Virus genome (UHGV): UHGV-0204578
Source of the DNA: a virus
DNA: 31,092 nt
Strand: one strand, 5' to 3'
The position numbers and the translations under genes are program-made. The notes beneath the pieces were generated by a model. It did not search any database. It was given only the letters and a program-made list of their open reading frames with translations, and was not told the origin of the DNA. Below are positions 8,611 to 30,735 of the stretch, piece by piece. Positions within the stretch are counted from its first letter, which is position 1. Each line of letters starts with the position of its first letter.

Positions 8611-9444
8611 TCAGCAATTGGTCAGAGTGTCAACGGGGGCGTTACCGCCTGTTGCACGCTGGCGGTAGTCCTGGCGGCTGTCTTCATGACTCAGCTTGTC
8701 CACCAGTTCGTTAAAGGCGGTTTGCTGTACCTGCAGGGCAGTCTCCAGCTCAGACAGGCGTTCTTCCTGCTCAGACAGGGATTTTTCGGTGCGTGCGCTC
8801 AGGTTCTGCTGCTCAGTGGCGACCAGCTCCACGGCCTTATGCACATCAGAGAACCGGGCGTCATCGGACTGCTCTTTTTTGGTAAACAGCGCCGTGACGC
8901 GGGCAAACAGGGACGGTTTGTCGTCCTGGATTTCTTCCAGTTCGATCACCGTTTCCTCTGCAGCGGTAAAGAGATTGGCAGGATTCTGCTTGCGGTTTGC
9001 CAGTGGGTTATGGGCTGCACTGGCGCTGAATGTCAGCATTTCAGTGCCCAGACTGGCAGGGTCATCAGTGGCAGCCAGGCCGACCAGGTAGGCTTTGCCC
9101 GTATCAGCGAACTTCGGGCTGACTTCCATAGAGGTGAATAATTTCTGGCCTTTTTTCACCAGTTCCACCAGGGACTCCGTTGGCTCAACGTCGGCATACA
9201 GCGCCATCTTGCCTGCCAGCGGACCTTCCGTGATTTCTTCAGCAAACAGCGCCGTCACCTTGCCGTAGCGGTTAAAGGTGCTGTCCGGCAGATAAGACTT
9301 GATGTGCTCAAGGTTAATCAGCGCGGTATACACCGCCGGGTTGTAGCTGGCTGCCATCTGTTCCAGCCATTCACGCTGGATTTCGCGTCCGTCGGTGGTG
9401 GCACCTTCCACCCCGATGCGAAAACGCTTTGCTTTCACTGTCAT
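8611..9444 (-). CDS. O: Capsid scaffolding protein gpO
   Basis: 277-aa ORF with acidic coiled-coil C-terminus; P2 gpO-like; first gene of the leftward late operon. Confidence 0.9.
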   Translation of the reverse strand: MTVKAKRFRIGVEGATTDGREIQREWLEQMAASYNPAVYTALINLEHIKSYLPDSTFNRYGKVTALFAEEITEGPLAGKMALYADVEPTESLVELVKKGQKLFTSMEVSPKFADTGKAYLVGLAATDDPASLGTEMLTFSASAAHNPLANRKQNPANLFTAAEETVIELEEIQDDKPSLFARVTALFTKKEQSDDARFSDVHKAVELVATEQQNLSARTEKSLSEQEERLSELETALQVQQTAFNELVDKLSHEDSRQDYRQRATGGNAPVDTLTNC

Positions 9445-9586: not shown

Positions 9587-11353
9587 ATGAACACCACACT
9601 GACACCCGCAGATCTCGATCCCCGTCGGCAGGCCATGCTGCTGTACTTTCAGGGATACCGCGTCGCCCGCATTGCTGAAATGCTGGGCGAGAAAGTTGCA
9701 ACTGTTCACAGCTGGAAAAAACGCGACAAGTGGGGTGACTATGGGCCGCTGGATCAGATGCAGCTCACCACCGCCGCACGCTACTGCCAGCTCATTATGA
9801 AGGAGCACAAAGAAGGGAAAGATTTCAAAGAAATTGACCTGCTGGCGCGCCAGTCGGAGCGCCACGCGCGGATCGGCAAGTTTAACAATGGCGGCAACGA
9901 AGCCGACTTAAACCCTAACGTCGCCAACCGCAACAAAGGCCCACGCCGTCAGCCGGAAAAGAATGTTTTCACCGATGAACAGATTGAGAAGCTGGAAGAA
10001 ATCTTCCATTCCTCCATGTTCAACTACCAGCGCCACTGGTGGGAAGCCGGAAAAACCAACCGCATCCGCAACCTGCTGAAGTCACGCCAGATCGGCGCGA
10101 CCTTCTATTTTGCCCGTGAAGCCCTGATTGACGCCCTGCTTACCGGACGTAACCAGATTTTCCTTTCTGCCAGTAAGGCTCAGGCCCACGTCTTTAAACA
10201 ATACATCATCGACTTCGCCAAAGAAGTCGAGGTGGAGCTGAAAGGCGATCCGATGGTGCTTCCTAACGGAGCCACGCTTTACTTCCTCGGCACCAATGCC
10301 CGCACGGCCCAGAGTTATCACGGCAACCTGTATCTGGATGAATATTTCTGGATACCGAAATTCCAGGAGCTGCGCAAAGTGGCTTCCGGGATGGCTATTC
10401 ACAAAAAATGGCGACAAACCTATTTTTCCACGCCATCCAGCCTGACCCACAGTGCTTATCCGTTCTGGTCCGGTGCGCTGTTCAACCGTGGACGCAACAA
10501 AGCTGACAAGGTGGACATCGACCTGTCCCACAGCAATCTGGCCCCCGGCCTGCTGTGCGCAGACGGGCAATACCGCCAGATAGTCACCGTGGAAGATGCG
10601 GTGCGCGGCGGCTGTAACCTGTTCGACCTCGACCAGCTACGCTTGGAGTACAGCCCGGACGAATACCAGAACCTGCTGATGTGCGAGTTCGTGGACGATC
10701 TCGCGTCCGTGTTCCCGCTCAGCGAACTGCAGGCGTGCATGGTGGACAGCTGGGAAGTCTGGACCGACTTTCATGCACTGGCCCTGCGCCCGTTTGGCTG
10801 GCGCGAAGTGTGGATCGGTTATGACCCGGCAAAAGGTACGCAGAACGGCGACAGCGCCGGATGCGTGGTGGTGGCACCGCCAGCCGTGCCAGGCGGTAAG
10901 TTTCGCATTCTTGAGCGTCACCAGTGGCGCGGGATGGACTTCCGCGCCCAGGCTGACGCCATCAAAAAACTGACCGAACAGTACAACGTGACCTATATCG
11001 GTATCGACTCAACCGGCGTCGGTCACGGGGTTTACGAGAACGTGAAAGCGTTCTTTCCTGCCGTCCGGGAGTTTGTCTACAACCCCAACGTTAAAAACGC
11101 CCTGGTACTCAAGGCCTACGACATTATCAGCCACCGCCGTCTGGAGTTTGACGCCGGACATACCGACATTGCGCAGTCATTCATGGCAATCCGTCGCGCC
11201 ACCACCGCCAGTGGCAACCGCCCGACCTACGAAGCCAGCCGCAGCGAAGAAGCCAGCCATGCCGATCTGGCATGGGCAACCATGCACGCACTGTTTAACG
11301 AACCGCTGCAGGGCGAGTCCGCCAATACCAGCAATATTGTGGAGATTTTTTGA
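9587..11353 (+). CDS. P: Terminase large (ATPase) subunit gpP
   Basis: 588-aa ORF (P2 P is about 590 aa) with strong P2 gpP-like N-terminus (..QAMLLYFQGYRVARIAEMLGEK..TVHSWKKRDKW). Confidence 0.9.
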   Translation: MNTTLTPADLDPRRQAMLLYFQGYRVARIAEMLGEKVATVHSWKKRDKWGDYGPLDQMQLTTAARYCQLIMKEHKEGKDFKEIDLLARQSERHARIGKFNNGGNEADLNPNVANRNKGPRRQPEKNVFTDEQIEKLEEIFHSSMFNYQRHWWEAGKTNRIRNLLKSRQIGATFYFAREALIDALLTGRNQIFLSASKAQAHVFKQYIIDFAKEVEVELKGDPMVLPNGATLYFLGTNARTAQSYHGNLYLDEYFWIPKFQELRKVASGMAIHKKWRQTYFSTPSSLTHSAYPFWSGALFNRGRNKADKVDIDLSHSNLAPGLLCADGQYRQIVTVEDAVRGGCNLFDLDQLRLEYSPDEYQNLLMCEFVDDLASVFPLSELQACMVDSWEVWTDFHALALRPFGWREVWIGYDPAKGTQNGDSAGCVVVAPPAVPGGKFRILERHQWRGMDFRAQADAIKKLTEQYNVTYIGIDSTGVGHGVYENVKAFFPAVREFVYNPNVKNALVLKAYDIISHRRLEFDAGHTDIAQSFMAIRRATTASGNRPTYEASRSEEASHADLAWATMHALFNEPLQGESANTSNIVEIF

Positions 11354-17454: not shown

Positions 17455-17796
17455 TTAATTCGGCATGGCTAGCCGTCTGGGAAATAAGCTCACCACTGCA
17501 CGAAGATGATTCATTACTTTAATCAACTCCCGCTTTTCGTCAGTGGTCAGCTCATTAATGCTGATGCTATGACGTTCAGCTGGAATTTTTGCTATAAAGA
17601 ATATAGCAGCCAGTGCCCGTTTATTTCTTTCATAATTAACATCCCGTGGATCACGTATATCTTTAATAAACCGCTCAAGCTCTGGCTCAATATTCAGGCC
17701 AAATACTTTCGCCCTTAATTCCGCAATATGATTAAGTCCATTCAGGCGTTCACCTGGGCTTAATGGAACAGTCGCCGCAGCGCCATTAATTGCCAT
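17455..17796 (-). CDS. Hypothetical early protein (113 aa)
   Basis: Intact ORF co-oriented with the early operon; no recognisable motif. Confidence 0.5.
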   Translation of the reverse strand: MAINGAAATVPLSPGERLNGLNHIAELRAKVFGLNIEPELERFIKDIRDPRDVNYERNKRALAAIFFIAKIPAERHSISINELTTDEKRELIKVMNHLRAVVSLFPRRLAMPN

Positions 17797-19761: not shown

Positions 19762-20787
19762 ATGACCATCAGAAAACAGCCGAACGGAAAGTGGTTATGT
19801 GAATGCTACCCAAACGGGAGAGATGGCAAACGCGTACGCAAACAATTTGCGACGAAAGGCGAAGCCATTGCGTTTGAGAATTTCACCATGGATGAGGTAA
19901 ACAAGAAACCTTGGCTGGGAGAAAAGGAAGATCGGCGACAACTGTCAGAAGTGATTGAGCAATGGTATTCCCTGTACGGTCAGACACTCGCTGACCCTAA
20001 GCGATTAATGGCTAAGTTAAAAATCATTTGTAATGGACTTGGCGATCCCATCGCTTCTGAATTGACAGCAGGTGATTTCACAAAGTACCGGGAAGCCAGA
20101 TTAAAAGGTGAGGTCAAAAACGAAGATGGCGTGCTCATGTCACCGGTTAAGCCCAGAACGGTGAACCTTGAACAGCGTAACCTATCCTCAGTTTTTGGCA
20201 CACTGAAAAAGCTGGGACATTGGTCTGCACCCAACCCCCTCGCCGGTCTGCCAACTTTCAAAATTGCAGAAGGTGAACTGGCGTTCCTTGCTGCTGATGA
20301 AATCAAACGCCTGCTTGACGCATGTGCTGAATCTCAAAGTCCCAGTCTGCTAATGATTGCCAAGATTTGCCTGGCTACCGGGGCAAGATGGAGCGAAGCC
20401 GAAAACCTGCAAGGTAACCAGATATCAAAGTATCGAATTACCTATACCAAAACAAAAGGAAAGAAAAACCGAACTGTTCCTATTTCTCAGGAACTGTATG
20501 AAGAATTACCCAAAAACAGAGGAAAGTTATTCACACCATGCCGAAAGGCTTTTGAGCGTGCGGTAAAACGAGCTGGAATTGAACTACCTGAAGGTCAATG
20601 TACCCACGTTCTGCGCCACACTTTCGCCAGCCACTTTATGATGAACGGCGGAAACATTTTGGTATTGAGGGATATTTTAGGACACGCTGATATTAAAATG
20701 ACCATGATTTATGCCCATTTTGCACCTGATCATCTGGAAGATGCCGTTACCAAAAATCCACTTCATAACCTCAACTGGCATCGCTAA
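19762..20787 (+). CDS. int: Tyrosine integrase (P2/186 Int family)
   Basis: 341-aa ORF with C-terminal catalytic region HVLRHTFASHFMMNGGNILVLRDILGHADIKMTMIYAH (R..H..R..Y signature); reads toward the att core. Confidence 0.9.
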   Translation: MTIRKQPNGKWLCECYPNGRDGKRVRKQFATKGEAIAFENFTMDEVNKKPWLGEKEDRRQLSEVIEQWYSLYGQTLADPKRLMAKLKIICNGLGDPIASELTAGDFTKYREARLKGEVKNEDGVLMSPVKPRTVNLEQRNLSSVFGTLKKLGHWSAPNPLAGLPTFKIAEGELAFLAADEIKRLLDACAESQSPSLLMIAKICLATGARWSEAENLQGNQISKYRITYTKTKGKKNRTVPISQELYEELPKNRGKLFTPCRKAFERAVKRAGIELPEGQCTHVLRHTFASHFMMNGGNILVLRDILGHADIKMTMIYAHFAPDHLEDAVTKNPLHNLNWHR

Positions 20788-20904: not shown

Positions 20905-20949
20905 ATGTAGGAATTTCGGACGCGGGTTCAACTCCCGCCAGCTCCACCA
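20905..20949 (+). other. ssrA: att core: 45-nt copy of the 3' end of the tmRNA gene ssrA (fragment only)
   Basis: ATGTAGGAATTTCGGACGCGGGTTCAACTCCCGCCAGCTCCACCA matches the E. coli ssrA 3' terminus from memory. Sequence upstream is integrase coding/AT-rich arm DNA, so the full gene is not here. Confidence 0.75.
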
Positions 20950-20982
20950 AATGATGATCCGGATACGTCCGGTGAAGTACAG

Positions 20983-21017
20983 AAAGCCCGCATGGCACAA
21001 GCCCTGCGGGCTTTTTT
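20983..21017 (+). terminator. Intrinsic terminator downstream of the ssrA 3' end
   Basis: GC hairpin gcccgca...tgcgggc followed by TTTTTT. Confidence 0.55.
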
Positions 21018-21060
21018 GTGTCTGACGTTGTCCGAGAACATCCGGCTAAATCCGGTGATT

Positions 21061-21114
21061 ATTGGTATACGTTTAGGTATACGGTAGGATGTATACCTAA
21101 AAACGTATACCAAT
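21061..21114. promoter_or_regulatory. Inverted repeat of a 22-bp motif (ATTGGTATACGTTTAGGTATAC) upstream of the satellite integrase; candidate Int arm sites or int operator
   Basis: Arms at 21061..21082 and 21091..21114 are near-perfect reverse complements; a third copy (one mismatch) lies at 30515..30536. Confidence 0.5.
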
Positions 21115-21133
21115 TCATGAAGGAGCGGCCACA

Positions 21134-22327
21134 GTGGCACGGACAACACGCCCCCTTACCAACACCGAAGTTCTGCGCGCTAAGGCGTTAGAGAAGGATC
21201 TAACGCTGCACGATGGCGACGGGCTTTTCCTGATAGTGAAAACTAGTGGCAAAAAGCTCTGGCGCTTTCGCTATCAACGTCCGGTAACAAAGCAGCGGAC
21301 AATGATGGGGCTCGGTGCCTTCCCCGCCCTATCGCTTGCTGATGCCCGAGGATTAAGAGCGGATTACCTTGCCTTATTAGCCAACGGACTCGACCCGCAA
21401 ATTCAAACTGAAGTTGCAGAGGAACAGCAGCAAATAGCACTGGACAGTATTTTTTCAACGGTCGCCGCTAACTGGTTCCAGCTCAAAAGCAAAAGCGTTA
21501 CCCCTGATTACGCAAAAGACATTTGGCGCTCACTGGAGAAAGATGTATTCCCTGCCATCGGTGAGATCCCCGTTCAGCAAATCAAAGCACGGACACTGGT
21601 TGAAGCTCTTGAGCCAATCAAAGCTCGTGGGGCGCTTGAGACTGTACGTCGACTGGTGCAGCGCATTAACGAGATAATGATTTATGCCGTAAACACTGGC
21701 CTGATTGATGCTAATCCAGCATCAGGTGTTGGGATGGCCTTTGAGAAGCCCAAAAAACAAAACATGCCGACGCTTCGGCCAGAAGAGTTACCAAAACTCA
21801 TGCGTTCTTTGGTGATGTCAAATCTCTCTGTTTCGACTCGCTGTTTAATTGAATGGCAACTCCTGACGCTTGTGCGCCCTTCTGAGGCCTCCGGTGCTCG
21901 TTGGGCAGAAATCGATCTCGATGCAAAGCTTTGGACTATTCCAGCCGAACGGATGAAGGCGAAACGTGAGCACATAGTTCCTCTCTCAACTCAGGCATTA
22001 GAGATTCTCGAAGTGATGAAACCAATCAGCGCTCACCGTGAACATGTTTTTCCCAGTAGGAATGATCCAAAACAATCCATGAATAGCCAAACAGCTAATG
22101 CAGCTTTGAAGCGTATAGGATATGGAGGAAAATTAGTTGCACACGGTTTACGATCTATTGCAAGTACTACATTGAATGAAGCGGGCTTTAATTCAGATGT
22201 GATAGAAGCGGCATTAGCTCATACAGATAAAAATGAGGTAAGAAGAGCATATAACCGCTCTATCTATTTAAAGCAAAGAATAGGCATGATGGAATGGTGG
22301 GGTGAAAAAGTTTATAATAAAAACTGA
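21134..22327 (+). CDS. int: P4-family integrase (IntA-like tyrosine recombinase)
   Basis: 397-aa ORF, GTG start with AAGGAG 8 nt upstream; N-terminus MARTTRPLTNTEV...DGDGLFLIVKTSGKKLWRFRY typical of P4/CP4-57 integrases; sits about 185 bp after the ssrA 3' end as intA does in E. coli K-12. Confidence 0.9.
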   Translation: MARTTRPLTNTEVLRAKALEKDLTLHDGDGLFLIVKTSGKKLWRFRYQRPVTKQRTMMGLGAFPALSLADARGLRADYLALLANGLDPQIQTEVAEEQQQIALDSIFSTVAANWFQLKSKSVTPDYAKDIWRSLEKDVFPAIGEIPVQQIKARTLVEALEPIKARGALETVRRLVQRINEIMIYAVNTGLIDANPASGVGMAFEKPKKQNMPTLRPEELPKLMRSLVMSNLSVSTRCLIEWQLLTLVRPSEASGARWAEIDLDAKLWTIPAERMKAKREHIVPLSTQALEILEVMKPISAHREHVFPSRNDPKQSMNSQTANAALKRIGYGGKLVAHGLRSIASTTLNEAGFNSDVIEAALAHTDKNEVRRAYNRSIYLKQRIGMMEWWGEKVYNKN

Positions 22328-22366
22328 AAAAAAAATAAAAGCTCATTCTTATGAGCTTTTATTTTC
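22328..22366. terminator. Bidirectional intrinsic terminator between int and the cargo operon
   Basis: Hairpin aaaagctcat-tctt-atgagctttt flanked by an A-run on one side and a T-run on the other. Confidence 0.65.
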
Positions 22367-22964
22367 CTGCATTACCTTTCGAATTATCAGCATCCTGTTT
22401 ATTTTGAAAAGTCATAAAGGTATTATACCAACTAGAAACACGGAATATAGCAAGAACAGCTGCTAATGCAGAGAATACTGAGTAAATAAATATAAAGTAA
22501 GCAAAAAAACTAAATATTAATAACGCATACTTATAGAAAACACCTAAATAATAATACATAAAAGCATTATTTATGAGAATACTACTATAGGCCTTGGTAA
22601 CCAAGGCCGTAATAATAGTTAGTAATTGCAACAATATAAAATGGACAAAAGTTGCATTGACTGACATATAAGGAGAATATTCTACTTCCCCACTTTCACT
22701 TTTTTCATCACCAGTTATTATTTTTTTAAAGGCCTCATCACCAATAGCTATCCACATAGCAAAACCACCTAATGAAAAGCCCAGAAGGTTCGGCATCAAT
22801 GACAGGATATCATTCCACCACCCCTGATGAGACCAAGATGGATAAAGAATCACTGTCATTAAAAAAGCACACCAAAAATAGCGACTTTTAAACACAGCCC
22901 CAGCGCCACCATAGATTTTCCAGTATCTAGCCAATGCACTGGTTGATTCTTTTTCTTCACTCAT
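22359..22964 (-). CDS. Uncharacterised integral membrane protein (201 aa, about 4 TM helices); downstream gene of cargo cassette
   Basis: Hydrophobic segments YFWCAFLMTVILYPSW, ILSLMPNLLGFSLGGFAMWIAIG, VHFILLQLLTIITALV, YALLIFSFFAYFIFIYSVFSALAAVLAIF; start overlaps the upstream gene stop (TAATG); AT-rich. Confidence 0.7.
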   Translation of the reverse strand: MSEEKESTSALARYWKIYGGAGAVFKSRYFWCAFLMTVILYPSWSHQGWWNDILSLMPNLLGFSLGGFAMWIAIGDEAFKKIITGDEKSESGEVEYSPYMSVNATFVHFILLQLLTIITALVTKAYSSILINNAFMYYYLGVFYKYALLIFSFFAYFIFIYSVFSALAAVLAIFRVSSWYNTFMTFQNKQDADNSKGNAGK

Positions 22965-23893
22965 TACTTTCTCAGAAGCCTCTTAAATTCATCTGCTAAT
23001 GATTTTGCCCTTAATAACAATAGCTCAGAAACCGATGTTACGTCAGAATCATATGGTTCGACCCTTTGAAGTGGTACGTCACTTGAGGCATGAACCTCTA
23101 CTAATCCCGCCTCATTAATCCTGCGTATACTAACTTCACCATTTCTCGAAGCAATAAGAGCATCCTGTTTTAACTCACCATCAGGTTTAATTTCCTGACC
23201 TCGCTCAGATTTATATGTTTTATCCTCTTCAATAACCCCAATACGCTTGAAGCGCTTTTGCATAACATTTTCTGCAGAAGCGAGATCATCCGGATTAGGA
23301 CGTCGAGTGACCATATTTATACACGTAATACCTTTTAAAGAAAGCATACGTTCTACACTATCTGGCTCAGTCAATATTGTAACATTAACCTTTCCAAATT
23401 TCTCTATAATTCTCTCGTGAGAAAATATCCCATTCAGAAAGCTTTCTATTTGTCTTGGTGTAAGATGCCGGCTCTTGTCCTGCATTTCGTAAACTAAAAG
23501 ATGACTTGCGGGTAGAAAAACAAAAGAGAATCTAGCTACATTTGGTTTTAAATTATCAGGTATATTTATTCTTTCCTTTTCCTCATCTGAAGCTATATCT
23601 TTCTTTACGATATCGAACCAGTCGCCATTAACGTCAATATCTGTATACTTTAGAATTTCCCCCTCAAAAGGTTCACTAATTACCTGACCTTTCTTATAAG
23701 GATAAAAATATGATAAAGTTGCGAATGAGTCTCCTCTTAAATTAACATTGCTCGCATTTTTTCTTGCCATCCTGAATAACTCGACATACTTTTCTGGCGA
23801 GTGGGGGTGCATGGATATATTCACAGCCCCGTAAGTTAATTTTTTTGCCCTTGCCATTTTTATCTTTGTTCCCTTATTTCGTGAAAGAATCAT
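22964..23893 (-). CDS. Uncharacterised soluble protein (309 aa; 297 aa if start is ATG at 23857); upstream gene of cargo cassette
   Basis: Intact AT-rich ORF with no TM segments and no catalytic motif I recognise (no Walker A, no GS..DxD nucleotidyltransferase motif, no HxH); translationally coupled to the membrane protein gene. Confidence 0.7.
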   Translation of the reverse strand: MILSRNKGTKIKMARAKKLTYGAVNISMHPHSPEKYVELFRMARKNASNVNLRGDSFATLSYFYPYKKGQVISEPFEGEILKYTDIDVNGDWFDIVKKDIASDEEKERINIPDNLKPNVARFSFVFLPASHLLVYEMQDKSRHLTPRQIESFLNGIFSHERIIEKFGKVNVTILTEPDSVERMLSLKGITCINMVTRRPNPDDLASAENVMQKRFKRIGVIEEDKTYKSERGQEIKPDGELKQDALIASRNGEVSIRRINEAGLVEVHASSDVPLQRVEPYDSDVTSVSELLLLRAKSLADEFKRLLRK

Positions 23894-26004: not shown

Positions 26005-26114
26005 TGTTCACTGAAAAGAAAAAGATAAGTAATACAGTAAGTTAAAGGGTGAACAGTTGAAGGTCTGACTGTTCACCGTCTGTTCACCACTGTTCACCTT
26101 TCAGTTTGTTCAGC
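26005..26114. repeat. Iteron cluster (TGTTCACC type), candidate alpha-binding ori/crr element
   Basis: Exact TGTTCACC at 26070, 26081 and 26091 (10 to 11 bp spacing), inverted GGTGAACA at 26048, degenerate copies at 26005 and 26107. TGTTCACC is the P4 type I iteron. Confidence 0.65.
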
Positions 26115-26367: not shown

Positions 26368-26634
26368 ATGCACACCGTTTTTTCTTCCCCGTCTTCTGCC
26401 CCTGCCGCGCCGCTGATGCCGGTTTCTGATACCGTTCACGAACGCTTTATCCGTCTGCCCGAAGTGATGCATCTGTGCGGCCTGTCCCGCTCGACCATTT
26501 ACGACCTCATCAGCCGGGAAGCCTTCCCGAAACAAATCTCCCTCGGCGGAAAAAATGTGGCGTGGGCGCAGTCTGAAATCACTGCATGGATGGCGGATCG
26601 CATTGCCGAACGTAACCGGGGCTATGACGCATGA
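26368..26634 (+). CDS. alpA: AlpA/Vis-family small DNA-binding regulator
   Basis: 88-aa ORF with the AlpA-type HTH segment [49 protein letters not shown]. Confidence 0.75.
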
Positions 26635-26761
26635 TGATGATCGCTCAGCAAACAGCCCCTTTTTCTGGCTTGCTTCTTTTCGCCATTTCCAGGTATAGTT
26701 TTCCCGCTGTCGCAAAATCGACAGCCGGGCGTGGAAACCCGAGCAACTCGAAGGCGACACC

Positions 26762-26785
26762 AGACGCGCCATGCGTCTTTTTTTG
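26762..26785 (+). terminator. Intrinsic terminator inside an untranslated leader
   Basis: agacgc-gccat-gcgtct hairpin followed by TTTTTTT, in the roughly 400-bp gap between alpA and the next RBS-bearing start. Confidence 0.55.
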
Positions 26786-27032
26786 TGTCGCAACTAACGC
26801 CACAGAGCGCCAGATAATGGCGTGGTGTGCGGATCGTCGTGCAGACGTCACTTTGTGTCTCCTGTCCGCAATCGCATATCATGCTGTCATGTCAATGGTA
26901 GCTCAGGCGGGGCAGCCCTCGGGCTGGCCGGTATTCTTCGAGGCCGGTATTTCCACCCCCGTCTGGGCTATCGCCACTGAGCGTGGAAACTCCGGCGATA
27001 GCAATAATTTGCTACTCGAAGGAGGTTGCCTT

Positions 27033-27451: not shown

Positions 27452-27768
27452 AACAGCCATTACCGCCCGTATTACGCGCCGCGCTGTATCGTCGCGCCGT
27501 GGCCTGTGCATGGCTGACGGTGTGCGAATGCCAGCACCGCTACCCGCACCTCACCCTCGACGCGCTGGAAAGCGCCATTGCCGCCGAGCTGGAGGGCTTC
27601 TATCTGCGCCAGCACGGCGAGGAAAAGGGCCGTCAGATTGCCTGTGCATTACTGGAAGATTTAATGGAAGCCGGGCCACTGAAAGCCGCGCCGTCACTGT
27701 CCTTTCTCGGGCTCGCGGTGATGGATGAACTTTGCGCCCGTCACATCACATCGCCTGTACTGCACTGA
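27448..27768 (+). CDS. Hypothetical protein (106 aa)
   Basis: ATGA-coupled to the previous ORF, directly upstream of alpha. Confidence 0.55.
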
Positions 27769-27782
27769 GGGAGAAAATAACA

Positions 27783-30116
27783 ATGAAAATGAATGTAACG
27801 GAAACCGTAAAACAGGCCTGCGGCCACTGGCCGCGCATTCTCCCGGCGCTGGGTGTGAAGGTCATTAAAAACCGCCATCAGGCCTGCCCGGTATGCGGCG
27901 GCTCTGACCGCTTTCGCTTTGACGATAAAGAGGGGCGCGGCACGTGGTTCTGTAACCAGTGCGGCGCGGGTGACGGCCTTAAACTGATTGAGAGGGTATT
28001 CGATGTATCTGCCTCAGAGGCCGCCCAAAAGGTGAATGCTGTCACCGGCAACCTGCCGCTGGTTGCCCCGGAGGTGATTGCGGCCGCAGAGGCTGAAACC
28101 GATGCCGACCGCAAAGCGGCGGCCGAGCTGGCCGTAAAACTCATGGAGAAGACCCGCACGGCTGCCGGCAATGCCTACCTGACCCGCAAGGGCTTCCCCG
28201 ATAGTGAATGTGTGATGCTGACGGCCACACATAAAACCGGCGGTGTGACGTACAGTGCCGGGGATTTGGTTGTTCCGCTGCATGACCATTCCGGCGCGCT
28301 GGTTAATCTTCAGCTTATCAATGCTGAGGGTCTCAAACGCACCCTGAAAGGCGGCGCGGTGAAAGGGGCATGCCATATCATCGAAGGGCAGAAACAGGCA
28401 GGAAAACGCCTGTGGATAGCAGAGGGCTATGCAACAGCACTCACCGTGCATCACCTGACTGGCGAAACCGTCATGGTGGCGCTGTCGTCCGTGAACCTTC
28501 TTTCTCTGGCGAGCCTTACCCGACAAAAGCACCCGGCCTGTCAGATTGTCCTCGCCGCCGACCGCGACCTCAGCGGGAACGGCCAGACCAAAGCCGCAGC
28601 GGCTGCACTGGCTTGTGAGGGCGTTGTTGCCCTGCCGCCGGTATTTGGTGACTGGAATGATGCGTTTATGCAGCAGGGTGAGGACGCCACACGCAAAGCT
28701 GTCTATGGTGCCGTCCAGCCAGCCACACAAAGCCCGTTCGACACCATGAGCGAAGCCGAATTTACCGCCATGAGCGCCAGCGACAAGGCTTTGCGGGTAC
28801 ATGAGCATTACGGCGAAGCGCTGGCGGTGGATGCGAACGGCCAGCTCCTGTCCCGCTATGAAAACGGCATCTGGAAAAATATCCCTGCCGCCACTTTTTC
28901 ACGGAATGTGGCTGATTTATTCCAGCGCTTACGCGCCCCGTTCTCATCCGGGAAAATCGCCTCGGTGGTGGAGACCCTGAAACTGATTATTCCGCAGCAG
29001 GATACACCTGCGCGCCGTCTGATTGGTTTTCGTAACGGGGTGCTGGATACCCAAAGCGGGATATTCAGCCCACACAGCAAATCGCACTGGCTGCGCACCC
29101 TGTGCGATGTGGATTTTACCCCGCCGGTGGACGGGGAAACGCTGGAGACGCACGCGCCGAACTTCTGGCGCTGGCTCGACCGTGCGGCCGGTAAAAATCC
29201 ACAAAAACGCGACGTGATTCTGGCCGCGCTGTTTATGGTGCTGGCGAACCGTTACGACTGGCAGCTCTTTCTCGAAGTCACCGGTCCCGGTGGAAGCGGT
29301 AAAAGTATTCTGGCCGAAATTGCGACCCTGCTCGCCGGGGAAGATAACGCCACGTCAGCCGATATCGACACACTGGAAGACCCGCGCAAGCGTGCCTCCC
29401 TGATTGGCTTCTCGCTTATCCGTCTGCCAGACCAGGAAAAATGGAGCGGTGACGGCGCAGGACTTAAGGCCATCACCGGCGGCGATGCGGTCTCAGTTGA
29501 CCCGAAATACCAGAACCCATACTCAACACATATTCCGGCGGTGATTCTGGCCGTGAACAACAACCCCATGCGCTTCACCGACCGCAGCGGCGGTGTGTCG
29601 CGCCGCCGGGTGATTATCCACTTCCCGGAGCAGATTGCGCCGGAGGAACGCGACCCGCAGCTCAGGGATAAAATTGCGCGCGAGCTGGCCGTGATTGTGC
29701 GCCAGCTTATGCAGAAATTCAGCGACCCGATGACTGCACGCGCACTGCTCCAGTCGCAGCAGAACTCCGACGAGGCACTCAGCATCAAGCGCGATGCTGA
29801 CCCGACGTTTGATTTTTGCGGCTATCTGGAAATGCTCCCGCAGACCAACGGGATGTTTATGGGGAATGCCAGCATCATCCCGCGTAATTATCGTAAATAT
29901 CTCTATCATGCGTATCTGGCCTATATGGAGGCCAACGGATACAGAAACGTGCTCAGCCTGAAAATGTTCGGGCTGGGGCTGCCCATGATGCTGAAAGAGT
30001 ACGGCCTGAATTATGAGAAGCGGCACACCAAGCAGGGGATACAGACTAACCTGTCGCTGAAAGAGGAAAGCTACGGCGACTGGCTGCCTAAGTGCGACGA
30101 ACCCACAGCGATATAA
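27783..30116 (+). CDS. alpha: Alpha primase-helicase (P4 alpha family)
   Basis: Starts MKMNVTETVKQ... (GAGGGAG RBS), giving 777 aa, the P4 alpha length as I remember it. N-terminal zinc-binding primase motif CPVCGGSDRFRFDDKEGRGTWFCNQCGAGDG; Walker A GPGGSGKS in the helicase domain. Confidence 0.9.
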   Translation: MKMNVTETVKQACGHWPRILPALGVKVIKNRHQACPVCGGSDRFRFDDKEGRGTWFCNQCGAGDGLKLIERVFDVSASEAAQKVNAVTGNLPLVAPEVIAAAEAETDADRKAAAELAVKLMEKTRTAAGNAYLTRKGFPDSECVMLTATHKTGGVTYSAGDLVVPLHDHSGALVNLQLINAEGLKRTLKGGAVKGACHIIEGQKQAGKRLWIAEGYATALTVHHLTGETVMVALSSVNLLSLASLTRQKHPACQIVLAADRDLSGNGQTKAAAAALACEGVVALPPVFGDWNDAFMQQGEDATRKAVYGAVQPATQSPFDTMSEAEFTAMSASDKALRVHEHYGEALAVDANGQLLSRYENGIWKNIPAATFSRNVADLFQRLRAPFSSGKIASVVETLKLIIPQQDTPARRLIGFRNGVLDTQSGIFSPHSKSHWLRTLCDVDFTPPVDGETLETHAPNFWRWLDRAAGKNPQKRDVILAALFMVLANRYDWQLFLEVTGPGGSGKSILAEIATLLAGEDNATSADIDTLEDPRKRASLIGFSLIRLPDQEKWSGDGAGLKAITGGDAVSVDPKYQNPYSTHIPAVILAVNNNPMRFTDRSGGVSRRRVIIHFPEQIAPEERDPQLRDKIARELAVIVRQLMQKFSDPMTARALLQSQQNSDEALSIKRDADPTFDFCGYLEMLPQTNGMFMGNASIIPRNYRKYLYHAYLAYMEANGYRNVLSLKMFGLGLPMMLKEYGLNYEKRHTKQGIQTNLSLKEESYGDWLPKCDEPTAI

Positions 30117-30168: not shown

Positions 30169-30455
30169 GGTGAACAATCCACTGCTCACCCTTCACCGTA
30201 TATTCACCCTGTATCACCATGAAATTATTGATAAAAAACCAGAGGTGAACAGTGTGAACAGTAAAACCTGAAAAAACTTTTTATCACCCCTCACATCGCC
30301 TGAGCGGACGGTTCCAGAACGAGCACAAATCACAAAGGTGAAGAGTCGACTGTTCACTCTTCACCAACCATTCACCACTTATCATTATGATATTAAAAAG
30401 AAAAAAAGAGAGGTGAACAGTGTGAACAGTTAAATGCAAAAAAACTTTTTTTTAA
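30169..30455. repeat. Two tandem ~168-bp repeats, each carrying TGTTCACC-type iterons (crr-like cis replication region)
   Basis: Units starting near 30169 and 30337 are clearly homologous; GAGGTGAACAGTGTGAACAGT occurs in both (30242 and 30410), with several TTCACC/GGTGAA half-iterons. Confidence 0.65.
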
Positions 30456-30514: not shown

Positions 30515-30536
30515 ATTGGTATACGCTTAGGTATAC
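30515..30536. repeat. Third copy of the 22-bp GGTATAC-containing arm motif near the satellite right end
   Basis: ATTGGTATACGCTTAGGTATAC; one mismatch to 21061..21082. Confidence 0.5.
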
Positions 30537-30735
30537 AACTGAAAGTTGAATTGATAAATATTCAATAAAATCAAAATATTGAGAAAAATTTTCAGACTCC
30601 GCCAGCCCAATCATGATTGGACGGTGTAAGGACAACACCAACAAAAACAGGAAGTTAGAAGTCTCAGCAAAACACCGACCAGACGGTGAGGAGACATAAA
30701 AGGATACGCAAAGGAGCCGCGGCTCCTGGTAACAT

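Follow-up and report, generated by a model that had tools for sequence, protein, structure and literature searches.

The 31,092-nt stretch of virus genome UHGV-0204578 analysed here (the window) carries a P2-like prophage in its left part (positions 1 to ~20,900) and, directly downstream, a compact P4-like satellite for which this prophage is a potential helper. The prophage integrase (19762-20787), consisting of Int_N and Phage_integrase domains, reads toward a 45-bp 3′ fragment of the tmRNA gene ssrA (20905..20949, plus strand; identical to the ssrA 3′ end in L001 and L003), which marks the attL side of the satellite. Prophage and satellite both use the ssrA 3′ end, and this fragment alone lies between them; the same fragment is carried by the P2-like phages RE2010, SEN8 and SopEPhi. 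ARAGORN detected no intact tmRNA gene over the whole window, so the intact gene must sit beyond its left edge. The satellite begins right after the ssrA fragment, and its right end adjoins the chromosomal gene ypjA. A 94%-identical satellite, whose annotation lists the gene set given below, is located directly between intact ssrA and ypjA in E. coli NCTC10973, and in empty-site strains ssrA runs straight into the ypjA flank. The element integrated at the tmRNA gene comprises the integrase gene int (21134..22327, plus strand; GTG start, Shine-Dalgarno AAGGAG at 21120-21125), two cargo genes, psu, delta, sid, a Vis/AlpA-type excisionase gene (26368..26634, plus strand; Pfam Phage_AlpA, 72% identical to P4 Vis) and the alpha primase-helicase gene (27732-30116), together with a C4/isrK immunity RNA (26693-26978; Rfam C4, c4-a1b1 and isrK). 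The combination of int, psu/delta/sid, Vis/AlpA, alpha primase-helicase and a C4-type RNA constitutes a P4-like gene set.

Several further features of the satellite are worth recording. The two minus-strand cargo genes (22359-23893), located between int and psu and annotated in NCTC10973 as encoding a DUF4747 family protein and a hypothetical protein, fill the slot where P4-like satellites usually hold variable accessory or defence genes. A terminator hairpin followed by a T-run lies just after the end of ssrA (20983..21017, plus strand; stem 20999-21013), inside the int-side arm, which we designate P′, and the same hairpin is present in CP4-57 of E. coli K-12 and in the attP of contig L187 described below. 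The rho-independent terminator of ssrA is therefore borne by the satellite, as it is by CP4-57 in K-12, and transcription termination of the tmRNA gene depends on the integrated element. Between alpha and the far end, a 114-nt direct repeat (30169-30282 and 30337-30450; 77% identical, 168 nt apart) is rich in GGTGAACAG/TGTTCACC iterons, more of which are found near 26040-26107 (region 26038-26107); the layout of these iteron repeats matches crr and ori of P4.

Just inside both ends of the satellite, at 21061-21114 and 30515-30538, lie two clusters of a GGTATAC-containing repeat, so that the element is indeed bracketed by the motif as the first-pass annotation had noticed. The 22-mer ATTGGTATACGYTTAGGTATAC occurs exactly at 21061-21082 and at 30515-30536, both on the plus strand, where the chance expectation for the window is 0.01 matches even with 3 mismatches allowed. 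The same annotation had counted three copies, of which these two are exact and the third (21093-21114, minus strand; ATTGGTATACGTTTTTAGGTATAC) matches only with a gap, carrying TTTTT instead of TTT, and was missed by an ungapped search because of this 2-nt insertion. The window contains 7 copies of the heptamer GGTATAC, where 1.3 would be expected, and all but one fall inside the two clusters (21064, 21076, 21091 on the minus strand, 21105 on the minus strand, 30518 and 30530), the exception being a lone copy at 9325. The motif is thus better described as six ~12-bp units of the form WTWGGTATACR than as three 22-mers. Beside int, the direct units P′1 (ATTGGTATACGT, 21061-21072) and P′2 (TTAGGTATACGG, 21073-21084) are 12 bp apart and are followed by two inverted, minus-strand units, P′3 (21089-21100) and P′4 (21103-21114), whose heptamers are 14 bp apart; P′3 is often degenerate in relatives and P′4 is invariant. 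The far arm consists of two direct units, P1 (ATTGGTATACGC, 30515-30526) and P2 (TTAGGTATACAA, 30527-30538), on the plus strand and again 12 bp apart. The repeats therefore flank the core on both sides and are split in the prophage, with four units beside attL and two beside attR. The int-side cluster was detected in 391 of 5426 complete E. coli genomes, one copy in each except for a single genome with two, and this essentially once-per-genome occurrence indicates that it belongs to the element rather than to the host background; wide occurrence in the host, named at the outset as an observation that would speak against an attachment role, was not seen for this cluster.

Comparison with the empty site defined the junctions. 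The empty site ends ssrA with TTCAACTCCCGCCAGCTCCACCA and continues directly into ATCATGATTGG, and the right junction of the window reads TTCAGACTCCGCCAGC-CCA followed by the same ATCATGATTGG. The attR core, TTCAGACTCCGCCAGC plus CCA, occupies 30591..30609 on the plus strand, and its first 16 nt (30591-30606) are element-borne, since TTCAGACTCCGCCAGC recurs in relatives of many genera, where it is followed by unrelated host flanks. A core-like sequence at the far side, as initially proposed, exists in the form of TTCAGACTCCGCCAGC, and the part of it held in common with attL is limited to the 8-bp block CCGCCAGC, found at 20935-20942 within the ssrA fragment and at 30599-30606 in attR. The attR departs from ssrA right after GCCAGC, where the window lacks the four bases TCCA (region 30599-30612); L001 and L006 show the same loss, and at the same position K-12 and many other genera lack a T. 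This loss is larger in some relatives, and changes at exactly this position recur across genera (for example L005, 1200-1235). The missing T in the attR of CP4-57 is the known reason why excision of this element deletes T357 of ssrA and inactivates tmRNA, a ‘regulatory switch’ (PMC10107115), and a loss of the same T357 type holds for CP4So of Shewanella (PMC5148205). With TCCA absent from the attR of the window, excision of this copy may be rare or may carry a cost. A candidate reading in which attL and attR share just CCAA, implying an immobile element, was ruled out by the empty site, K-12, the L187 attP and the T357 literature, which place the common block CCGCCAGC immediately left of the missing bases.

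The distances between core and repeats were found to be constrained. The P2-to-TTCAG (core) spacing was 61 nt in all 31 elements whose right end fell within the sequence examined, and the AT-rich spacer sequence itself had almost wholly diverged. On the int side, the distance from the core/ssrA end to P′1 fell into classes of 114–115, 122–125 and 134–136 nt in relatives, that is, steps of approximately one helical turn, showing that the unit positions are conserved and phased. The sequence AATCAAAATATTG (30569..30581, plus strand), located between the far arm and the core, matches the IHF consensus WATCAANNNNTTR exactly, as no other sequence of the 31-kb window does; it is a tentative IHF site, because the strict consensus is kept in just 3 of 29 relatives, in which an AACA-N4-GTTG-like element recurs at that place. 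A conserved AAAGTTGAATT adjoins the far-arm units in relatives.

Searching viral contigs for the 22-mer gave 106 loci, one of which, L187 (IMGVR_UViG_2600255186_000010), is a 10,182-bp whole contig from an isolate genome. L187 is a complete related satellite in circularly permuted form, and its ends abut at positions equivalent to 27910 and 27912 of the window. The circular permutation indicates that the culture contained the satellite in excised or plasmid form, or else a tandem that was collapsed. In L187 both clusters are contiguous around one core and form an intact attP, which reads ATTGGTATACGCTTAGGTATACC, 54 nt, TTCAGACTCCGCCAGCTCCACCA and ~114 nt including the terminator hairpin, and continues with ATTGGTATACGTTTAGGTATAC, ggtaagat, GTATACC-N7-GTATACCAAT, the Shine-Dalgarno sequence and the GTG start of int. 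The attP that the first-pass annotation had proposed to reconstruct by joining the two ends thus occurs naturally, in the same arrangement.

Arm sequence repeats of the P4 attP were reportedly described by Pierson & Kahn in 1987. The P4 record (NC_001609) annotates 12-bp ‘attP arm sequence repeats’, and its feature table, read in the direction of int, showed the same layout as the satellite at similar distances; comparison with the Int-binding repeats of P4 had been put forward as a check. Two tandem far-arm units (4174-4151) are followed in P4 by the 20-bp core (4097-4078), two tandem units at the start of int (3965-3942) and one inverted unit (3926-3915); likewise, the satellite has 12-bp units, two in tandem in the far arm, a core at the 3′ end of a tRNA-like gene, and two tandem plus inverted units at the start of int. 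The arm-core distances are ~58 and ~116 nt in P4 versus 61 and 114 nt in the satellite. Both elements also have a TCCG triplet upstream of the int-side units, and both carry psu, delta, sid, alpha, Vis and the C4/CI RNA. P4 differs in its target, which is the leuX tRNA gene instead of the tmRNA gene, in its single inverted unit, whereas the second inverted unit of the satellite completes a full palindrome, and in the unit sequence itself (TTGGGGGCAT in P4, TTGGTATACG in the satellite), a difference to be expected from integrases that are only 36% identical.

CP4-57 of E. coli K-12 (IntA/AlpA), a 22-kb decayed island as opposed to the compact satellite, integrates at the same ssrA site and has the same element-borne core TTCAGACTCCGCCAGC, and its attR likewise differs from ssrA right after GCCAGC, lacking the T only rather than TCCA. 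Its int-side units are TAGGCCCA, two direct and one inverted before intA and ~22 nt farther from the core than those of the satellite, and its far end contains two GGACCAA units 12 bp apart, the second of which is located exactly 61 nt before TTCAG, as in the satellite. The arm units thus differ (GGCCCA/GGACCA in CP4-57, GGTATAC in the satellite). More distant systems show the same principle. Lambda Int is heterobivalent, and its N-terminal domain reads approximately five arm sites (P1, P2 and P′1–P′3) located to either side of the core, with the intervening DNA bent by IHF (established knowledge and PMC2951348); however, both the sequences and the family of the arm-binding domain are unrelated to those of the satellite, and, in contrast to what is proposed below for Pint, the promoter that drives lambda int does not lie within the arm sites. 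A closer parallel in this respect is KplE1 (CPS-53; IntS/TorI), in which the integrase promoter in attL overlaps arm-type and excisionase sites and the integrase negatively regulates itself (PMC2951348). KplE1 belongs to another integrase lineage, targets argW and has another repeat, and its regulation was established experimentally, whereas that of the satellite is predicted.

The satellite Int contains Arm-DNA-bind_3 (residues 8–91; E = 3.7e-21), Phage_int_M and Phage_integrase domains in Pfam, matches the solved N-terminal domains 3ju0 and 3jtz, and is 62% identical to K-12 IntA and 36% identical to P4 Int. Scanning one genome per species identified 79 loci with Ints 71–93% identical to that of the satellite, and the regions upstream of the related int genes fell into two main classes of identical geometry, carrying either GGTATAC or GGTACAC. 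We compared 114 distinct Ints, 86 of the GGTATAC type and 28 of the GGTACAC type. Five alignment columns alone separated the two types perfectly, all of them within residues 1–95, the N-terminal arm-binding domain: T4 versus I, L, M or V, T11 versus N, V13 versus I, M57 versus N, and A76 versus D (GGTATAC versus GGTACAC). By our own arithmetic, the chance that five random columns all fall in the first 95 of 397 residues is ~0.001. Over residues 1–95 the between-type identity was 0.66 compared to 0.83–0.88 within types, while in the central and catalytic domains the between-type identity (0.81–0.82) equalled the within-type identity. GGTATAC was kept by Ints down to 72% overall identity, indicating that the repeat type follows the N-terminal domain rather than overall divergence. 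Because the GGTACAC group may descend from one ancestral switch, the covariation may rest on few independent events. Far arm and int side changed together, as the far-arm type equalled the int-side type in 30 of the 31 elements with an examined right end (24 GGTATAC, 6 GGTACAC); the one mismatch, L042, which has GGTACAC beside int and GGTATAC at its far end (9932-9973; 17487-17584), is probably a hybrid or recombinant in a decayed array. More distant Ints come with other repeat types (GGCCCA, GGGACCC, GGCACCA and GGGGGCA).

The excisionase showed no such relationship: identical Vis proteins are found in GGTATAC and GGTACAC elements, with no discriminating column. The excisionase as reader of the motif was rejected, given that Vis does not covary with repeat type. 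Three TCCG motifs spaced exactly 10 bp apart (21031..21054, plus strand) closely precede the int-side units. This triplet occurs once in the window and once in P4, at the homologous place in each (L002 3973-3996 in P4), and is a better candidate for the Vis/AlpA sites than the GGTATAC units. Two more TCCGG motifs, 10 bp apart, adjoin the core (20958-20972) and are also candidate Vis/AlpA sites.

The int-side units coincide with a putative int promoter, Pint. A −35-like TTGGTA (21062-21067) within P′1 is followed 17 nt later by the −10-like hexamer TAGGAT (21085..21090, plus strand), situated between the direct and inverted units. In relatives TTGGTA was invariant (97 of 97 distinct upstream regions), and a TAnnAT-like hexamer stood exactly 17 nt after it in 94 of the 97, in the form TATAAT or TATACT in the GGTACAC class. 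A consensus promoter scan around int called nothing in the window, where TTGGTA-17-TAGGAT scores 8/12, so the proposal rests on the conservation in relatives; in the homologous region of L048, TTGGTA-17-TATAAT (10/12) was the only promoter-like site called by the scan. The predicted start, ~7 nt past the −10 hexamer, falls in the first inverted unit, and Int bound to the units would therefore occlude RNA polymerase. Piazzolla et al. reportedly found in 2006 that the N-terminal part of P4 Int is sufficient for Pint repression. According to PMC7286903, which cites Piazzolla et al. 2006, P4 Int and Vis both repress Pint, and for KplE1 IntS arm sites overlapping the integrase promoter are established (PMC2951348). 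These comparisons, together with the conserved TTGGTA-17-TAnnAT enclosed by the units, favour the suggestion made in the first-pass annotation, there as an alternative to attachment, that the inverted pair acts as an operator of int: the int-side units likely double as operator for Int autorepression, and the two roles do not exclude each other.

Taken together, the data argue strongly that the GGTATAC units are arm-type sites of the heterobivalent, P4-family Int of the satellite, the int-side set probably serving also as int operator. The P4 layout, the joined clusters of L187 and the covariation with the Int N-terminal domain only all support the original proposal that split arm sites of an attP were left by integration. 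In the free circle, the far side would consist of P1–P2, the 54-nt AT-rich spacer with the IHF-like site and the core TTCAGACT-CCGCCAGC-TCCACCA; the int side would continue through ~114 nt (TCCGG repeats, ssrA terminator and three TCCG motifs) to P′1–P′2, the −10 hexamer, P′3–P′4 and int. We infer that the N-terminal domain of Int would dock on the units and the catalytic domain would work on the core. The resulting arm-core bridges would build the intasome that inserts the satellite at the 3′ end of the tmRNA gene and, together with Vis, excises it. On insertion the set would be split into the four units at attL beside int and the two at attR. At the putative promoter, P′1 would cover the −35 element, P′2 would fill the spacer, and P′3 and P′4 would cover the start region; since the units overlap the promoter, bound Int should repress its own synthesis, as is reported for P4.

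Three other readings of the repeats were weighed. The inverted pair might be the operator of a regulator other than Int, such as Vis/AlpA or another satellite repressor, the far copy being a second operator or incidental. The position of the palindromic cluster on the int promoter region and the reported repression of P4 Pint by Vis noted above would fit such a regulator, but Vis occurs in identical form with both repeat types, every discriminating residue lies in the Int N-terminal domain, and the TCCG triplet, common to P4 with its 72%-identical Vis, is the better Vis-site candidate, which makes this reading quite improbable. We give equally little credence to the view that the 54-bp palindrome works through its fold, as a cruciform in DNA or a hairpin in RNA that might for instance block read-through from ssrA, rather than as a set of protein sites. 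The predicted single-stranded DNA fold is stable (−19.2 kcal/mol, z = −7.4), and 30 relatives keep 88% of cells paired, with 6 pairs showing two-sided changes. However, a hairpin leaves unexplained the direct far-end copy, whose changes parallel those of the int-side units, as well as the 12-bp tandem periodicity and the single inverted unit of P4; the inner inverted unit P′3 is the least conserved part; the ssrA terminator is already present upstream, and a U-tract is absent after the hairpin. In addition, the predicted transcription start lies inside the palindrome, so that the int mRNA would lack its left arm. It is the far-arm copy and the N-terminal-domain covariation, and not the pairing statistics, that lead us to reject the hairpin as the main explanation. 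Finally, chance matches or a functionless duplication relic, for which nothing speaks beyond the short unit length, are next to impossible to reconcile with the expectation of 0.01 matches and with heptamers that never vary and hold their positions across dozens of genera, even as the spacers beside them have diverged.

Reading the units as arm sites of Int places them in an ordinary class of features, attP arm sites of the P4 family, and the accepted picture of heterobivalent integrases is unchanged; the modest novelty lies in the one-base switch tied to five residues and in the unlike types of tandem neighbours. In the literature searched, in which the primary work on P4 att and Pint (Pierson & Kahn 1987, Cali 2004 and Piazzolla 2006) was represented by PMC7286903 and the feature table of NC_001609, no description of GGTATAC arm sites was found. 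For annotation, the repeats fix the true ends and the attP of widespread P4-like satellites of the tmRNA gene, present in ~7% of complete E. coli genomes, and they explain the conspicuous palindrome before int.

At least five arm-repeat types (GGTATAC, GGTACAC, GGCCCA, GGGACCC and GGCACCA) were found on the same ssrA core and architecture. Of 59 distinct right ends, 10 led into the int-side arm of a further element, and each of these 10 junctions joined different types, in a sample that is small and biased by the search pattern. These tandem arrays of ssrA-targeting elements are L012 (from Kluyvera sichuanensis 090646), L078, L095, L096, L104, L128, L153, L167, L183 and L189; the sole case in which a right end and an int arm of the same type meet is the L187 circle. 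This pattern suggests that arm-site divergence may keep co-resident elements independent. A tentative extension, to which we incline slightly less than to its opposite, is that elements on the ssrA core diversified their arm sites and Int N-terminal domains into orthogonal sets, so that each would be excised by its own Int only, with GGTATAC/GGTACAC as the minimal switch. If so, one base per unit against five residues (4, 11, 13, 57 and 76) would amount to a readable recognition code of Arm-DNA-bind_3. Independently of this extension, the two classes, in which one base change per unit is tied to five residues, offer a clean natural test case for DNA recognition by the arm-binding domain of the P4 family, which could guide the design of orthogonal integrase/attP pairs, and they suggest how several elements sharing a chromosomal site might excise without affecting one another.

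Symmetric changes were also seen in relatives in the sequences bordering the two inner units, direct and inverted, with TTAGG...CCTAA alternating with ATTGG...CCAAT (columns 24/47 and 29/42 of alignment A1, corresponding to window positions 21075/21098 and 21080/21093), which could reflect either homogenisation of the palindrome or symmetric protein contact.
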